64,000 bases of DNA from a virus: the UHGV virus genome UHGV-1359874. One strand, 5' to 3'. The notes under the pieces were generated by a model. That model made no database searches. It was not told the DNA's origin and saw only the letters and a list, made by a program, of their open reading frames with translations. Position 1 is the stretch's first letter; each line of letters begins with the position of its first letter. Below are positions 640-23,076 of this stretch, piece by piece. The translations under genes were made by a program, and so were the position numbers.

Positions 640-1736
640 TAACAATTAAATACGAAAGGCGCTTTTGATTAATGGAAGCATTAGATAAAGCTATTTATGA
701 TTATCACAATACTGATAAAACAATTACTACAATTCTAAAAGAAACTGGAATTAGTAAAGCTACTTTTTATAGACATTTAGACTATAAAGAAGAATTTAGA
801 GCAAAGAAGAAAGCTCGTACTTATACTTTTAATTTTGATAAATTTAAAATTGATTCTCACGAAAAGTATTATTGGTTAGGTTTCATTGGAGCTGATGGAG
901 CTGTTGTAAAAAATACATTAAGTATTGAGCTGAAAGAAACTGATAAAGCTCATCTTGAGAAATTTAATTTATTTTTTGAAAATACAAAGACTATTGAAGA
1001 AAGGATTAATAATAATGGATGTAAATGTGTAAAAACAAATATTAACTCTTTTCAATTAGTTGAGTATTTAAAACAATATAACATTTATCAAAATAAAAGT
1101 TTAACTTATACTATTCCAATAGATAAAATTCCTGAAATATATTTAATGGACTTTATTAGAGGGTTAATTGATGGAGATGGTTGTATTAGGATCAACAATC
1201 ATCAACAGATTTCTTTAGGATTTTGTAGTGGAAATGGATATTGTGTAGAACAGTTTAAAGAAATTTTAGGAATAACAAATAAAACCACTAAAGATAAATA
1301 TACTTATCATACCCAGGTAACAGGTAATATTAAAGCAAAAGCTATTCTTGACAAAATTTATTTAAACAGTTCTGATTCAACGAGATTAGATAGAAAATAT
1401 CGTATTTATAAGACCCTTAATTGAGTAATTAATTAAGCAAATCCAGAGAATTGCTGGAAACCCCTTAGAGCTTTCTAAACTACAACGTAAGTTAAAAGCT
1501 AAACGTGAATGTTCTAAAAATTAGAAAGATTGGGCAATCAGCAGCCGAGCTTCATTATTATAATGAAGAAGGTTCAACGACTATCCATTTTGCAGATGAA
1601 ATTTCTGCTTTAGGAGTAGGGCTTTATAAAAATAAAGTGGGTGAGAATCCCTTAAATCGAAGTACTGGACTCCACGAAAGTGGATGATGATATAGTCTAC
1701 TCCCTTTAAAATATCTCGAAAGAGAGGGTATTAAGG
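640..1736 (+). mobile_element. group I intron (family A) interrupting ATPase gene, with LAGLIDADG ORF
   Basis: It starts with TAA right after an exon-terminal U. The 3' terminal block gatagtctactccctttaaaatatctcgaaagagagggtattaagg is near-identical to the 3' end of the nrdD intron (19467-19511). The block aacgactatc is also shared. It ends in G before the exon 2 start attcttgat. Confidence 0.6.
672..1424 (+). CDS. LAGLIDADG homing endonuclease (double-motif), intron-encoded
   Basis: Two LAGLIDADG motifs: YWLGFIGADGAV and FIRGLIDGDGCI. 250 aa, lying entirely inside the ATPase interruption. Confidence 0.75.
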   Translation: MEALDKAIYDYHNTDKTITTILKETGISKATFYRHLDYKEEFRAKKKARTYTFNFDKFKIDSHEKYYWLGFIGADGAVVKNTLSIELKETDKAHLEKFNLFFENTKTIEERINNNGCKCVKTNINSFQLVEYLKQYNIYQNKSLTYTIPIDKIPEIYLMDFIRGLIDGDGCIRINNHQQISLGFCSGNGYCVEQFKEILGITNKTTKDKYTYHTQVTGNIKAKAILDKIYLNSSDSTRLDRKYRIYKTLN

Positions 1737-1850
1737 ATTCTTGATACGGCTGATATTGCGTACTCATACTGTGAGAAGTACGTCTGTGCAAATGTTAAGC
1801 GCGCTGATGGCGGTGTTGGCGTTGACTCTGTTGCGGACATCCCCTACGGT
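1737..1850 (+). CDS. recombination ATPase, exon 2 (38 codons, no own start codon)
   Basis: The open frame encodes ILDTADIAYSYCEKYVCANVKRADGGVGVDSVADIPYG, a Walker-B-like hhhhD segment typical of Sak4/RecA-like ATPases. The 3' splice position comes from homology with the nrdD intron end. The 5' end of the next intron follows ggt|aaat, as in the dut intron. Confidence 0.5.
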
Positions 1851-2937
1851 AAATCTCTTGCCGCATAAAAATAGTGATATTTTATGAAAATTGTAGTAAA
1901 AACTGGAACCCTGTGATGGGAATCAGAGCGGAAGTTATGTTTTAAAAGATATAACACGCGCAACGCATAGGAAAAATAAACATTAAAGGGAGGATTGTCC
2001 TAGTATGGGAAAATCAATTATTCTAACGAAAGAGCAAGAAGAAAAAATAATTTACAATTATACCATTTTAAAATATGGTCAAAAAAGAGCTGGTGCTTTT
2101 ATTCCAGTAAGTGATTGTGTTGTAAAAAAAGTTTTAATGAAATATAATATACCTATTAAAACAATTCAAGAAACAAATGTAAACAAATATTTTATAAATC
2201 ACAATTATTTTAAAACACAGTCAGCAGATATGGCTTACTGGATAGGCATTTTAGGTTCAGATGGTTCAGTAAATAAAAATGAAAATGAAATTTATATTGA
2301 ACTTCAAAGACAGGATAGAGAACTTCTAGAAAAGCTTAATAAAAGTATTGAAAACCAAAGACCAGTAAAAGACTATGAAACAGCAAGAGGTTATGAAAAT
2401 AGTAAGATCTATTTTTATTCAAAAGAAATTAAAAAAGATTTAAAAGAGTTTAAAATAATACCGAACAAAACCTATGATAAGAATTATGGCTTTCCTTTTA
2501 AATTAAAAAAAGAATATTATCAAGATTATTTAAGAGGACTGTTTGATGGAGATGGAAGTATAAAAAAAGGAAGCTCTTTAACTTGGCAAGTTGATTCTGG
2601 GTCATTGGAAATTGTCTTAGAATTGCAAAAATTTCTTAAAGAAAAAGGTATTGAAATTGAATATACTATTTGTCCTAAAAAAAATGTTGATATTTATAGA
2701 CTTTATTGTTACGGAAAAGAAAAAATAAGCAAAATTTATAATTTATTATATACAACAGATTCTACTTTGTTTTTGGAAAGAAAGAAAAATAAATTTATAG
2801 AATATTTAAACCTTTAATGATATAGTTTCCCAAGAGACTACAATATCTCAAGTATTGAGATAAAAAGATATGCTGAACTTACATGAAAAAAGAAGTGTAA
2901 GAACTAAAGGATAAAAAACTTTTAGGATAACAAATTG
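1851..2937 (+). mobile_element. group I intron (family B) interrupting ATPase gene, with LAGLIDADG ORF
   Basis: It starts aaat after exon-terminal ggt, exactly as the dut intron does. The 3' block aaaagatatgctgaactta...aagaagtgtaagaactaaaggataaaaa...ggataacaaattg is shared with the dut intron 3' end (23001-23076). It ends in G. Confidence 0.6.
2005..2817 (+). CDS. LAGLIDADG homing endonuclease (double-motif), intron-encoded
   Basis: Motifs AYWIGILGSDGSV and YLRGLFDGDGSI. There is a GGAGG RBS (aaagggagg) upstream. 270 aa. Confidence 0.75.
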   Translation: MGKSIILTKEQEEKIIYNYTILKYGQKRAGAFIPVSDCVVKKVLMKYNIPIKTIQETNVNKYFINHNYFKTQSADMAYWIGILGSDGSVNKNENEIYIELQRQDRELLEKLNKSIENQRPVKDYETARGYENSKIYFYSKEIKKDLKEFKIIPNKTYDKNYGFPFKLKKEYYQDYLRGLFDGDGSIKKGSSLTWQVDSGSLEIVLELQKFLKEKGIEIEYTICPKKNVDIYRLYCYGKEKISKIYNLLYTTDSTLFLERKKNKFIEYLNL

Positions 2938-21459: not shown

Positions 21460-21470
21460 GGTAAAATTTA

Positions 21471-21707
21471 ATGTTTATTAAAATTAAGTATTTTGATGAA
21501 TCAATGCCTAAACTTGAATTTATCGAAGGTAAGAAATCTGATTGGATTGATTTGCGGGCAGCTGAGGAACTCTTTATTCCTGCTAATACTTTTGCAATGA
21601 TTCATCTGGGAGTAGCCATGAAGCTACCTGAAGGTTATGAAGCTCATATTGCACCTCGTTCCTCAACTTTCAAGAAATGGGGAATCATTCAGGTTAACTC
21701 TGTCGGT
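21471..21707 (+). CDS. dut: dUTPase, exon 1 (motifs 1-2)
   Basis: Motif 2 is IAPRSS. The sequence ends ...GIIQVNSVG just before conserved motif 3. The ORF track then runs into K-stop. Confidence 0.7.
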
Positions 21708-23076
21708 AAATAAAAATTCCTAAAAAAGTTTGGTCGAAGTTCTTTCACCGGCGTAAGATAAAATTCATATAATAATGAAAAATAAAAGAAAAAGGAGTTT
21801 TGTCTTATAGCTACTAAAACTATTAATTTTGGAACGGATGAATTTTTTATTTCTAAATATAAAGAATTAAAAAGTTCAAGAAAAATGGGAGAATTTTTTG
21901 ACTGTAATAAAACTTCTGTTTTAAATCATTGTAAAAAAATTGGATTTGATCCAAAAAGTCTTCAATCTCCTAAGTTAACAGAAAAACAAAAACAAGAAAT
22001 TATTTCTTTATATGAAGAAAAAACAGCTTCAGAATTAGCTAAAGTATATAATGTTTCAGATAGTTTAATCTCAAAAGTTTGGATGGAGGCTGGCAAAAGA
22101 GGAAAAAAACGAGTAGGTTGGTGCCATGATTTAACAGGACAAACTTTTGGCTATTTAACTGTTATTGAAAAAACAGATAAAAGAGGTCCAAGTGGCGGAG
22201 TTATTTGGAAATGCTCTTGTAATTGTGGATTACCTTCTTGTTTAAAAGAAAAAGATATTCTTGGAGCTACTTTATTAGAAGGAAAAACGATTTCTTGCGG
22301 AGCAGTAGGAAAAAAGAATTTAGAAAAAGGAAGAGAAGTAAAAAATTTAATTGGTCAAAAATTTGGTCATTTAACAGTGATAAAAAGAGCTGAAAATAAA
22401 ATTTTCCCTTCTGGATATTCTGCTTCTCAATGGTTATGTAAATGTGACTGCGGCAATGAAACAATTATTCTTGGAAGCAACTTAATTTCAGGGAATAGCC
22501 AATCTTGCATTTATTGCAAAAAATCTCATGGAGAAAATAAAATTGAAGAACTTTTAAAAGAAAATAAACTTTCTTTTACTAGAGAACAAAGATTTGATAC
22601 TTGTAAAAATATTAGACCTTTACCTTTTGACTTTTATGTAAATAATCAATATTTAATAGAATTTGATGGTAAGCAGCATTTTGAAGCAACAGGTGAAAGA
22701 TTTAATGAAGAAGTTGTACAAGATATTCAAAAAAGAGATAGCATAAAGAATGAATGGTGTAAAAAAAATAATATTCCACTAATTCGTATTCCTTATTCTC
22801 ATTATAATGATTTAAAAATTGAAGATTTATTACTTGAAACTACAACTTTCTTAGTCAATAATGCCGACATAAAATCGCGGAATTAAGCGGGAAAGCTGAG
22901 ATGCTAATCCGAACCGAAGGCTAGGTTCAGCCTAGTCAGGGGCAACGCATAGGGAGTGAAAAGATATAATCTCCCCACGAGGCCGCGATACTTAAAAAGT
23001 AAAAAGATATGCTGAACTTATACAAATAAGAAGTATAAGAATTATAGGATAAAAAGCCTATAAGATAACATAAATG
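21708..23076 (+). mobile_element. group I intron (family B) in dut, with Vsr-like HE ORF
   Basis: ggt|aaat 5' junction and the 3' block aaaagatatgctgaactta...aagaagtataagaa...aggataaaaa...gataacataaatg are shared with the ATPase intron 2. The caacgcatagg element is also shared. Confidence 0.6.
21885..22886 (+). CDS. intron-encoded homing endonuclease: Cys-rich repeats + Vsr/DUF559-like PD-(D/E)XK domain
   Basis: Two repeats of the type L[TI]GQxFGxLTVI...WxCKCDCGNE...SGNSQSC. The C-terminus YLIEFDGKQHF...NNIPLIRIPY...LLETTTFL is a paralog of 10719-11687. Confidence 0.55.
   Translation: MGEFFDCNKTSVLNHCKKIGFDPKSLQSPKLTEKQKQEIISLYEEKTASELAKVYNVSDSLISKVWMEAGKRGKKRVGWCHDLTGQTFGYLTVIEKTDKRGPSGGVIWKCSCNCGLPSCLKEKDILGATLLEGKTISCGAVGKKNLEKGREVKNLIGQKFGHLTVIKRAENKIFPSGYSASQWLCKCDCGNETIILGSNLISGNSQSCIYCKKSHGENKIEELLKENKLSFTREQRFDTCKNIRPLPFDFYVNNQYLIEFDGKQHFEATGERFNEEVVQDIQKRDSIKNEWCKKNNIPLIRIPYSHYNDLKIEDLLLETTTFLVNNADIKSRN

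Follow-up and report, generated by a model that had tools for sequence, protein, structure and literature searches.

The viral genome UHGV-1359874 was analyzed over a stretch of 64,000 nucleotides (nt), referred to below as the window, whose plus strand carries a phage replication and nucleotide-metabolism module at positions 1-24000. The module includes genes for a Sak4-like AAA_24 ATPase, a DnaB-like helicase, a primase, RecJ, a superfamily 1 (SF1) helicase, DNA polymerase III alpha, NrdD, an NrdG-like protein, Dut, and RuvC. Three of these genes are split at four points: the ATPase gene by insertions I1 and I2, nrdD by I3, and dut by I4. All four insertions are very probably group I self-splicing introns, each with a homing-endonuclease gene. 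An earlier note on this DNA, made from the letters alone, had claimed four insertions sorted into two sequence families, A (I1 and I3) and B (I2 and I4), and had proposed group I introns; the positions it gave agree with ours (Table 1), and pairwise alignment, helix fitting, covariation, an Rfam match on I1, and the restoration of the host domains bear out both the two families and the proposal.

Each of the four insertions is preceded by an exon-terminal U and ends with a terminal G (omega-G), and the boundaries are in frame. When the flanks are joined, open frames of 342 (ATPase), 731 (nrdD), and 144 (dut) codons result, and the spliced products match Pfam domains in one stretch across the junctions (AAA_24, 2-195 of 195; NRDD, 1-562 of 562; dUTPase, 17-129 of 129), with ATP-cone and Gly_radical domains also present in NrdD. 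Over 99% of its length, the spliced ATPase can be aligned without a break, at 51% identity, to uninterrupted genes annotated as 'Sak4-like ssDNA annealing protein', and its closest homologues are found in Enterococcus phages of roughly 140 kilobases (kb). The breaks lie inside conserved motifs, namely the hhhhD Walker B motif, DIPYGKGY, and GVIDxxY. The predicted ligated-exon junctions, with a slash at the splice site, read GAAACGGTT/ATTCTTGAT for I1, CCCTACGGT/AAGGGGTAC for I2, AGCTACCAT/ATTCCTGTT for I3, and CTGTCGGT/GTTATTGAT for I4. Translation running on from the 5' exon meets an in-frame stop at codon 1 in I1 and I3, at codon 2 in I4, and at codon 6 in I2.

A related IMG/VR contig of 176 kb, 3300045988_175607 (loci L025 and L161), provides independent confirmation of the I1 junction: it lacks I1, its sequence runs continuously through FETVILDTADIAYSY, and ETVILDTAD is uninterrupted. 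The same contig has I2 and I3, each with its open reading frame (ORF) and at the same site as here, the former in the ATPase gene (73% nt identity) and the latter in nrdD (77% nt identity), and an extra family-B intron ending just before the Walker A codons PKSGKT of the ATPase gene. Such presence/absence polymorphism at the same sites is as expected of mobile introns. Among deposited phages, a megablast search with positions 300-4300 found no match; thus, this collection holds no close sequenced relative.

A common group I anatomy could be fitted by hand, from P1 to P9, to all four insertions (Table 1). It comprises a P1 helix with a U.G pair at the splice site, an internal guide that also forms P10 with the 3' exon, the P3/P7 pseudoknot, the invariant G-C/C-G at the J6/7 end of P7, and the terminal G. 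The U.G pair is found in four of four introns, and P10 spans 7, 5, and 4 base pairs (bp) in I4, I2, and I3, respectively.

Table 1. Predicted introns, ribozyme elements, and endonuclease genes of the window. Slashes separate paired strands or, within exon sequences, mark the splice site.
Feature	Position	Strand	Remarks
I1, family-A group I intron	640-1736	+	ATPase gene, between ...ETV and ILDTAD...; U639 before, G1736 last
I1 ORF	672-1424	+	double-motif LAGLIDADG with N-terminal helix-turn-helix; P1 loop; 3' end overlaps P1 3' strand and P2 5' strand
I1 guide AGACC	1411-1415	+	pairs with GGUU/U at 636-640; U.G at splice site
I1 P2	1416-1424/1429-1437	+	directly after guide; GUAA loop
I1 core	1442-1728	+	P3 1442-46/1665-69, P4 1452-57/1538-43, P5 1461-63/1532-34; P6 1544-46/1571-73, P6a, P7 1579-84/1692-97, P7.1 1592-96/1604-08; P8 1671-75/1680-84, P9 1702-04/1726-28, inner stem 1714-17/1722-25, GAAA loop (core: Rfam alignment, pairing check; P9: covariation)
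I2, family-B group I intron	1851-2937	+	same ATPase gene, between ...DIPYG and KGYAM...; U1850 before, G2937 last
I2 guide CUCUUGCCG	1855-1863	+	9 nt complementary to ligated CGGU/AAGGG
I2 P10	1855-59, 2938-42	+	with 3' exon AAGGG; 5 bp
I2 P1	1860-63, 1847-50	+	guide GCCG with CGGU; U.G at splice site
I2 core	1864-2925	+	P2 1864-70/1880-86, P3 1891-97/2837-43, P4 1903-06/1923-26, P5 1909-11/1918-20; P6 1928-30/1957-59, P7 1965-69/2869-73 (GCAUA/UAUGC), P7.1 1970-74/2826-30; P8 2844-51/2855-62, P9 2878-84/2895-2901, P9.1 2904-10/2919-25 (covariation, alignment A2)
I2 ORF	2005-2817	+	double-motif LAGLIDADG homing endonuclease; P7.1 loop (stem 1970-74/2826-30)
Free-standing I4-endonuclease paralogue	10590-11687	+	between SF1 helicase gene and ORF 11690, both neighbours intact
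I3, family-A group I intron	18430-19511	+	nrdD, between ...TNSYH and IPVFE...; U18429 before, G19511 last
I3 P1	18426-31, 18438-43	+	CCAU/UA with guide UAGUGG; U.G at splice site
I3 P10	18435-38, 19512-15	+	GGAU with 3' exon AUUC; 4 bp, read directly from sequence
I3 P2	18444-52/18457-65	+	GUGA loop, directly after guide
I3 5' domain	18470-18601	+	P3 5' strand 18470-74 (with 19426-30), hp1 18479-82/18486-89, hp2 18494-99/18503-08; P4 18513-17/18585-89, P5 18551-53/18579-81, P5a, P6 18590-92/19343-45, P6a 5' strand 18593-18601
I3 ORF, 233 amino acids	18640-19341	+	putative homing endonuclease; P6a loop (stem 18593-18601/19331-39); stop codon in P6a 3' strand
I3 3' domain	19351-19503	+	P7 19351-57/19466-72, P7.1 19364-73/19381-91, P7.2 19406-10/19415-19; P3 3' strand 19426-30, P8 19432-37/19455-60, P9 19477-79/19501-03, inner stem 19489-92/19497-19500, GAAA loop
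I4, family-B group I intron	21708-23076	+	dut, between ...NSVG and VIDESY...; U21707 before, G23076 last
I4 ORF, 333 amino acids or longer	21885-22886	+	putative homing endonuclease; P1 loop; phrog_559, 9084, 7140
I4 guide CAAUAAUGCCGAC	22856-22868	+	13 nt complementary to ligated GUCGGU/GUUAUUG
I4 P10	22856-62, 23077-83	+	with 3' exon GUUAUUG; 7 bp
I4 P1	22863-68, 21702-07	+	GCCGAC with GUCGGU; U.G at splice site
I4 core	22874-23063	+	no P2; P3 22874-80/22983-89, P4 22888-91/22908-11, P5 22894-96/22903-05; P6 22914-15/22939-40, P6a 22919-25/22931-37, P7 22947-51/23008-12 (GCAUA/UAUGC), P7.1 22952-56/22971-75; P8 22990-93/22997-23000, P9 23017-23/23033-39, P9.1 23042-48/23057-63

Family B is characterized by a variant P7 (GCAUA/UAUGC), a single P7.1 hairpin whose loop is conserved as UGA...AUAUAAU, a conserved CCA(C/A)GAG junction, P9 followed by P9.1, and the tail GAUAACA..UG. 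The order of helices derived from I4 (P3, P4, P5, P6/P6a, P7, P7.1, P3', P8, P7', P9, P9.1) is that of group I introns. An nhmmer profile of the family covers I4 from 22873 to 23073 with 152.8 bits and matches I2 at 1888-1973 and 2816-2937, and the two introns are 70% identical across the entire structural alignment. Covariation was assessed on alignment A2, which contains 11 sequences and was scored against the structure derived from I4, with slid pairing partners and 500 shuffles as controls. Standard pairs occupy 93.8% of the cells, compared to 31-46% with slid partners; both sides have changed in 41 of the 52 pairs; and the covariation score is 0.748 versus 0.08-0.16 with slid partners, none of the 500 shuffles being as high on any measure. 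Across the relatives, P7 itself covaries from GCAUA/UAUGC through GCGUA/UACGC to GACUA/UAGUC. The last of these is the classical P7, found in Clostridium phage CPQ4 together with classical R and S elements, yet with the P7.1, P9, and P9.1 of family B, and this mixture links family B to ordinary phage introns.

The family is widespread. The I4 core matches 54 phage records, from phages of Clostridium and Clostridioides, Mammaliicoccus, Listeria (LIS04), and Leptolyngbya and from a crAss-like phage; in all of them the element is unannotated, and several have it between two pieces of a single gene. The tail motif occurs at no fewer than 120 viral-contig loci (at least 107 distinct sequences), and among the matches listed the P7 3' strand reads UAUGC in 53, UACGC in 23, and UAGUC in one. 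In deposited GenBank records (loci L002, L003, L005, L009, L010, L011, and L013), the fragmented genes that contain or adjoin these elements include those for the major tail protein of Staphylococcus phage vB-SscS-F1, the terminase/Hint region of Listeria LIS04, the terminase large subunit of Exiguobacterium vB_EauM-23, the DNA polymerase of Leptolyngbya Lbo-JY46, and the ATPase of crAss-like cr6_1. In the same set of loci, family-B elements were also seen upstream of tape-measure genes in phiCDIF1296T and Arcanobacterium TPWB06.

Family A, as judged from its sequence, resembles the Twort/IA2-like phage introns. Its P7 is the classical GACUAU/AUAGUC, at least two hairpins separate P7 from the P3 3' strand, and P9 consists of an outer CCC/GGG stem, an A-rich internal loop that is asymmetric, and a 4-bp stem capped by a GAAA loop. 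With the ORF removed, I1 (1425-1724) is aligned from P3 to P9, truncated at its 5' end, by the Rfam model Intron_gpI (RF00028), with 48.1 bits and an expect value (E) of 1.9e-11. The family-A 3' profile covers I3 from 19341 to 19511 (nhmmer, E 2e-20). In 12 sequences, including two Twort introns, P9 is 100% paired, with both sides changed in five of the seven pairs, and P3 of the I3 type covaries in viral-contig relatives (CCUUG/CAAGG, CCUCG/CGAGG, CCCAG/CUGGG, CAAGG/CCUUG, CGCA/UGCG, and others). I1 and I3 also have a common layout, in which the guide lies directly 5' of a 9-bp P2 with a GNRA cap. Matches to the I1 core number 652 phage records, with Staphylococcus, Listeria, Bacillus, Enterococcus, and Lactococcus among the hosts, and the terminal block of I3 has counterparts in introns of Twort, phi3T/SPbeta-like, Bacillus G, Enterococcus, and Carnobacterium phages.

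The 5' domains of I1 and I3 differ: in I3 only, two hairpins, hp1 and hp2, are inserted between P3 and P4 (18475-18512), in the order UGAAC-hp1-GGUGU-hp2-GCUA-ACGGU. Both hairpins covary in 50 distinct viral sequences (loci L014-L107), where their stems average 4.1 and 5.4 bp, compared to 0.6 and 0.7 bp after shuffling. These counts come from anchor-based extraction; a MAFFT alignment of I3-type introns (A3), in which the variable hairpins were misaligned, was left out. The same arrangement recurs in Bacillus phage phi3T, in an intron that interrupts yonO, is not annotated (L231, 51.5-51.9 kb), and has a further P7 variant, GACCAU/AUGGUC. The insertion is present neither in Twort introns nor in I1, and a literature search for an insertion between P3 and P4 (P3.1/P3.2) found no description of one. 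As side observations on domain structure, the Twort intron that matches I1 from P3 to P7 has a 3' tail of the other, orf142/family-B-like, type, and I3-type 5' domains occur in viral contigs with both tail types (L034 and L081 versus L025 and L049), which suggests that 5' and 3' ribozyme domains have been reassorted among lineages.

Several points weigh against reading the insertions as group I introns. The gathering threshold of RF00028, 50 bits, is reached nowhere in the window, I1 coming closest at 48.1. The two halves of I3 score at most 9.5 bits, and the I4 core and ten family-B relatives are not matched, whereas the Twort orf142 introns, taken as a control, score 64-101 bits. The assignment of I2, I3, and I4 to group I therefore rests on hand fitting of helices and comparative analysis. 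Rfam reported no intron in the whole window at the gathering threshold, nor in positions 1-25000 at E values up to 10, because the ORFs split the cores of the intact introns; the sub-threshold scores, in turn, are attributable to these interruptions and to the variant P7. P1 of I1, with only 5 bp, is the weakest of the four P1 assignments, the P10 of this intron is negligible, and a search for another P1 within 640-671 found none. In I3, the two extra hairpins occupy a region that normally forms base triples with P6. Between P7 and the P3 3' strand, family B has a single hairpin instead of the two (P7.1 and P7.2) of IA2 introns; I3 has both (19364-91 and 19406-19), and I1 has P7.1 (1592-1608) and further hairpins. 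Finally, the derivation of the A2 structure from I4 somewhat inflates the percentage of paired cells, although it leaves the double-sided changes unaffected.

Given the fitted anatomy, splicing by two guanosine-initiated transesterifications is expected, and the reaction can be rationalized into three steps. (i) Recognition: the end of the 5' exon would pair with the internal guide to form P1, the U.G wobble marking the splice site. (ii) First transesterification: exogenous guanosine bound in P7 would attack the 5' splice site. (iii) Ligation: the guide would then align the 3' exon through P10, the terminal G of the intron would replace the cofactor, and the exons would be joined, restoring the reading frames of the Sak4-like ATPase, NrdD, and dUTPase. 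When two phages infect the same cell, the endonucleases would presumably promote homing into alleles that lack the intron. We infer splicing activity, endonuclease activity and specificity, and the order of events from the sequence. The two-step, guanosine-initiated reaction is established for group I introns in general (PMC3984707), and in-frame stops are interpreted as stalling ribosomes so that the ribozyme can fold (PMC3984707).

To compare the insertions with one another, ORF-deleted introns were aligned locally and scored against 200 shuffles. Within the families, the z scores are 10.9 (I1-I3) and 22.6 (I2-I4), whereas the four cross-family pairs, between -0.9 and 3.2, are at or near background. 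The similarity of primary sequence resides mostly in the 3' domain (5' and 3' z scores of 1.3 versus 13.7 for I1-I3 and 2.7 versus 20.2 for I2-I4). The flanking exons have in common only cggt before I2 and I4 and attc after I1 and I3, so that repeated exon sequence, the alternative raised with the original claim, does not explain the families. A single cross-family similarity stands above background, that between the 5' domains of I2 and I3 (z 5.8), whose P2 hairpins (1864-1886 and 18444-18465) share ATAGTGATAT, a GUGA-capped AU-rich stem.

The blocks shared within each family belong to the group I core, and they form P7 and P9, with P9.1 in addition in family B, and show compensatory changes in relatives; this pairing had been named in advance as the test that could overturn the group I proposal. 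In family A, aacgactatc is the R element, with the P7 5' strand, at 1576-1585 and 19348-19357, and the terminal block is the S element, with the P7 3' strand, together with P9. In family B, caacgcatagg lies at 1961-1971 and 22943-22953, aaaagatatgctgaactta at 2863-2881 and 23002-23020, aagaagt[ga]taagaa at 2890-2903 and 23028-23041, and aggataaaaa at 2908-2917 and 23046-23055. Some of the letters quoted in the earlier note need correction. The family-A terminal blocks are present, but that of I1 was misquoted and reads gatatagtctac (gatatagtc, not gatagtc), not gatagtctac. The tail gataaca[at]a[at]tg fits I2, but I4 has one extra base (gataacataaatg), and the common g given for the position after the family-B splice site is wrong, A following I2 and G following I4. 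Likewise, aaaagatataa is present in both family-B introns, but I2 has it in the loop of P6a (1944-1954) and I4 in that of P7.1 (22959-22969), and at these non-homologous positions it is no evidence of common descent.

How each family came to have two members in one genome could be accounted for by spread within that genome, one intron being copied to a second gene, by reverse splicing at a guide-matching site or by ectopic homing, with later replacement of its endonuclease. We consider this unlikely overall. Both members of each family do lie within 23 kb; I2 and I4 both follow CGGU, have guides containing GCCG, and have cores as similar as stated above; and I1 and I3 both precede AUUC. However, shared flanks of 4 nt are short enough for chance, and both families are widespread elsewhere, as the phage records and distinct viral-contig sequences counted above attest. 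The 5' domains of I1 and I3 are without detectable similarity and differ in architecture, P3-P7 of I1 is nearer to a Twort intron than to I3, and the related contig, with I2 and I3 but not I1, indicates that members were gained at different times. Within-genome copying is thus possible for I2 and I4 and not supported for I1 and I3.

Less probable still is that the families are not lineages at all and the shared blocks are simply the universal group I core. It is true that aacgactatc and gatatagtc are classical R and S elements, present in hundreds of phage introns. Nevertheless, a core common to all group I introns would not leave the cross-family pairs so far below the within-family ones. The family-A blocks also reach beyond R and S into the P9 internal loop, the GAAA loop, and a GGGUAU tail, and those of family B include the CCA(C/A)GAG junction, the L7.1 motif, the P9.1 loop AUAAAAAG, and the GAUAACA tail, in addition to a P7 sequence of its own. 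Each family is, on this sequence evidence, a broad and widespread class of phage introns rather than a pair private to this genome, family A being defined by its 3' domain only.

That endonuclease cassettes merely split the host genes into separate or non-functional fragments without RNA splicing, the blocks being cassette ends or regulatory sequence, is hardly credible, for even if RF00028 falls short of its gathering score and a free-standing endonuclease gene of the same family as that of I4 occurs in the window, all the group I helices can be fitted to the non-coding parts and show extensive compensatory change, the guides are complementary to both exon ends, the boundaries are exactly U/...G/ and in frame, I1 is matched by RF00028 with a low E value, and fragments broken inside conserved motifs would hardly function separately. 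Two other kinds of element were considered besides group I introns. Inteins were rejected, since the insertions carry stop codons and RNA structure. Group II introns are unlikely: the fitted helices are arranged as in group I introns, and each of the four intron ORFs has its matches among endonuclease families, not with a reverse transcriptase; domain V was not specifically searched.

The nuclease genes of these group I introns are of several types. The ORFs of I1 and I2 match LAGLIDADG_3 of Pfam (40.2 and 51.8 bits; cut-off 22.5) and phrog_4645 (E 9e-42 for I1), as the LAGLIDADG calls of the earlier note would have it, and have the motif pairs LGFIGADGAV/LIDGDGCI and IGILGSDGSV/LFDGDGSI, respectively. 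They are homologous to each other across the two ribozyme families (35% identity over 127 amino acids, E 6e-19). The last codons of the I1 ORF form the guide and the P2 5' strand. The I3 ORF had been called HNH_3-like, a call that stands on PHROG labels only: its matches, labelled HNH or restriction endonuclease, have E values of 1e-15 to 1e-11 (phrog_374, 'HNH endonuclease', E 1.3e-15; phrog_8790), and no sequence match was found in Pfam, NCBIfam, or the Protein Data Bank (PDB).

The I4 ORF has repeated Cys-rich, putatively DNA-binding modules and, at its C-terminus, a nuclease domain of possibly PD-(D/E)XK-like type; its PHROG labels are HNH, homing, or intron-encoded nuclease. The designation Vsr-like given to it earlier is at most plausible, DUF2726 scoring 21.0 bits, below the cut-off of 24.7. 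PDB sequence searches with this ORF and with a two-sequence profile gave no meaningful match. A two-sequence AlphaFold (AF2) model of the C-terminal domain has a predicted local distance difference test (pLDDT) score of 66.6, and its Foldseek matches, TnsA and 3r3p_B among them, are non-significant (E 2-5). The latter corresponds to the catalytic domain of I-Bth0305I (PDB 3R3P), an intron-encoded nuclease of a Bacillus phage, of EDxHD or PD-(D/E)XK type. The weak likeness consists in the order of elements in the C-terminal domain (helix, three strands, helices, strand) and a conserved E-F-D-G-x-Q-H motif; 3r3p_B is among the top Foldseek matches with a target-normalised template-modelling (TM) score of 0.48, a match that is non-significant (E 5.4) and was obtained with a model of pLDDT 67. 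The upstream extension of the I4 ORF (IATKTINFGTDEFFISKYKELKSSRK) reads like protein, so that translation probably starts before ATG 21885, at a non-canonical codon. The frame is open from 21786, with a Shine-Dalgarno-like AAAGGAG at 21791-97 and the next candidate start at ATA 21807.

A free-standing paralogue of the I4 endonuclease, at 10590-11687, is 42% identical to it over 252 amino acids (BLASTP, E 2e-48) and falls into the same PHROG families, and no ribozyme was found near it with nhmmer profiles of both families. Its listed TTG start overlaps the 3' end of the helicase gene by 55 nt, so that the real start may be later. The intron ORFs occupy the L1 loop in I1 and I4, L7.1 in I2, and L6a in I3, and among family-B relatives, elements of Staphylococcus phage vB-SscS-F1 and an Exiguobacterium phage have theirs in the P8 loop. 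Because nuclease types cut across the ribozyme families and the I4 paralogue is free-standing, the endonuclease genes were most likely acquired independently of the ribozymes. This mixture of ribozyme lineage, nuclease type, and loop, with a free-standing paralogue besides, fits the accepted view, in which in-frame stops, ORFs in peripheral loops, and independent invasion of pre-existing introns by endonuclease genes form a consensus (PMC3984707).

The window invites comparison with known phage systems. One of these is Staphylococcus phage Twort. Twort has several group I introns of subgroup IA2, orf142-I1, -I2, and -I3 among them, and the orf142-I2 ribozyme has a crystal structure (general background and PMC3984707). 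As in Twort, there are several introns per phage and several in one gene. P3-P7 of I1 (1448-1567) is 80% identical over 124 nt to Twort 58690-58812, the terminal block of I3 is 82% identical over 51 nt to Twort 128615-128665, and the family-A terminal block (S and P9, with the GAAA loop) is found at Twort 1170, 128618, and 129920. The tail of family B has the layout of the orf142 tails (S, UGAAC, P9, P9.1, G(A)UAACA..UG), a likeness of layout only and not of sequence. In contrast, family B has a different P7 (GCAUA/UAUGC versus GACUA/UAGUC), one hairpin instead of two before the P3 3' strand, and no score with RF00028. The scored orf142 introns, at ~225-290 nt, are too short for an endonuclease ORF, which four of four introns carry here, and no Twort intron has hp1 and hp2 of the I3 type.

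The td, nrdB, and nrdD (sunY) introns of phage T4, also IA2, are the classic basis for the model of invasion by endonuclease genes. As in T4, related ribozymes lie in nucleotide-metabolism genes of one phage, nrdD included, and each intron has a different endonuclease gene in a different peripheral loop and an in-frame stop after the 5' exon (general background and PMC3984707). The endonucleases of T4 are GIY-YIG and HNH, whereas LAGLIDADG and others are found here, and there is no significant DNA similarity to T4-like phages among the matches listed. A third parallel is offered by Bastillevirinae (Herelleviridae-type) phages, which have up to several introns per genome, mostly IA-like (Nucleic Acids Research 2025, PMC11878797). 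Their ribozymes are often interrupted by a nuclease loop, with subgroup assignments differing on either side of it, and ribozyme clade and nuclease type are explicitly decoupled (PMC11878797), a decoupling with which the mixture in the present window is also consistent. The host genes are others, nrdD and dUTPase being unmentioned in the text of PMC11878797, and the comparison is one of described features. According to the same study, phage IA2 introns are heterogeneous, the RF00028/Rfam and GISSD models miss phage introns in part, and the classification needs revision (PMC11878797).

In practical terms, the annotation of the Sak4-like ATPase, nrdD, and dut genes should be joined across the four introns, and five genes need to be labelled as endonuclease genes. 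The same elements lie unannotated within tail, terminase, polymerase, and ATPase genes of deposited phage genomes. As the standard Rfam model misses family B and ORF-interrupted introns, dedicated covariance models would improve phage annotation. The window is also a compact natural illustration of ribozyme and endonuclease as separate passengers, with two ribozyme lineages, at least three endonuclease types, four loops that differ or were put to use independently, a gene type common to both lineages, and a free-standing paralogue. All of this is in line with the accepted invasion model without introducing a new principle, the ribozymes being group I introns of phage IA type. Tentatively, family B, which is abundant in viral contigs, and the I3 type might be variants of group I introns not yet catalogued. 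Were GISSD and later databases to contain neither class, many split genes for tail, terminase, polymerase, and ATPase proteins of phages would stand mis-annotated in deposited records, and the J3/4 insertion of the I3 type would be a new peripheral domain deserving structural study.

On either strand of the window, nhmmer profiles of both families found no further copies of family A or B. In the search for more introns and endonuclease genes in the window, neighbouring genes gave complete domain matches, and the sampled minus-strand ORFs were ordinary. Downstream of the ATPase gene (3594-3644) and of the nrdG-like gene (20385-20430) stand GC-rich hairpins with runs of T behind them; they surfaced as spurious weak Rfam matches (mir-3012, L20_leader) and are probably intrinsic terminators, each then followed by the promoter-like sequence ttatgatataat. 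Directly after the ATPase gene, a small Cys-rich ORF on the plus strand (3691-4206; phrog_4680, unknown function) looks like a conserved neighbour of that gene; in the related contig (L161), too, the ATPase gene is followed by a similar ORF (MSKGREKKIAHQVLCFYCNKNFDRDKEEYVQ...).

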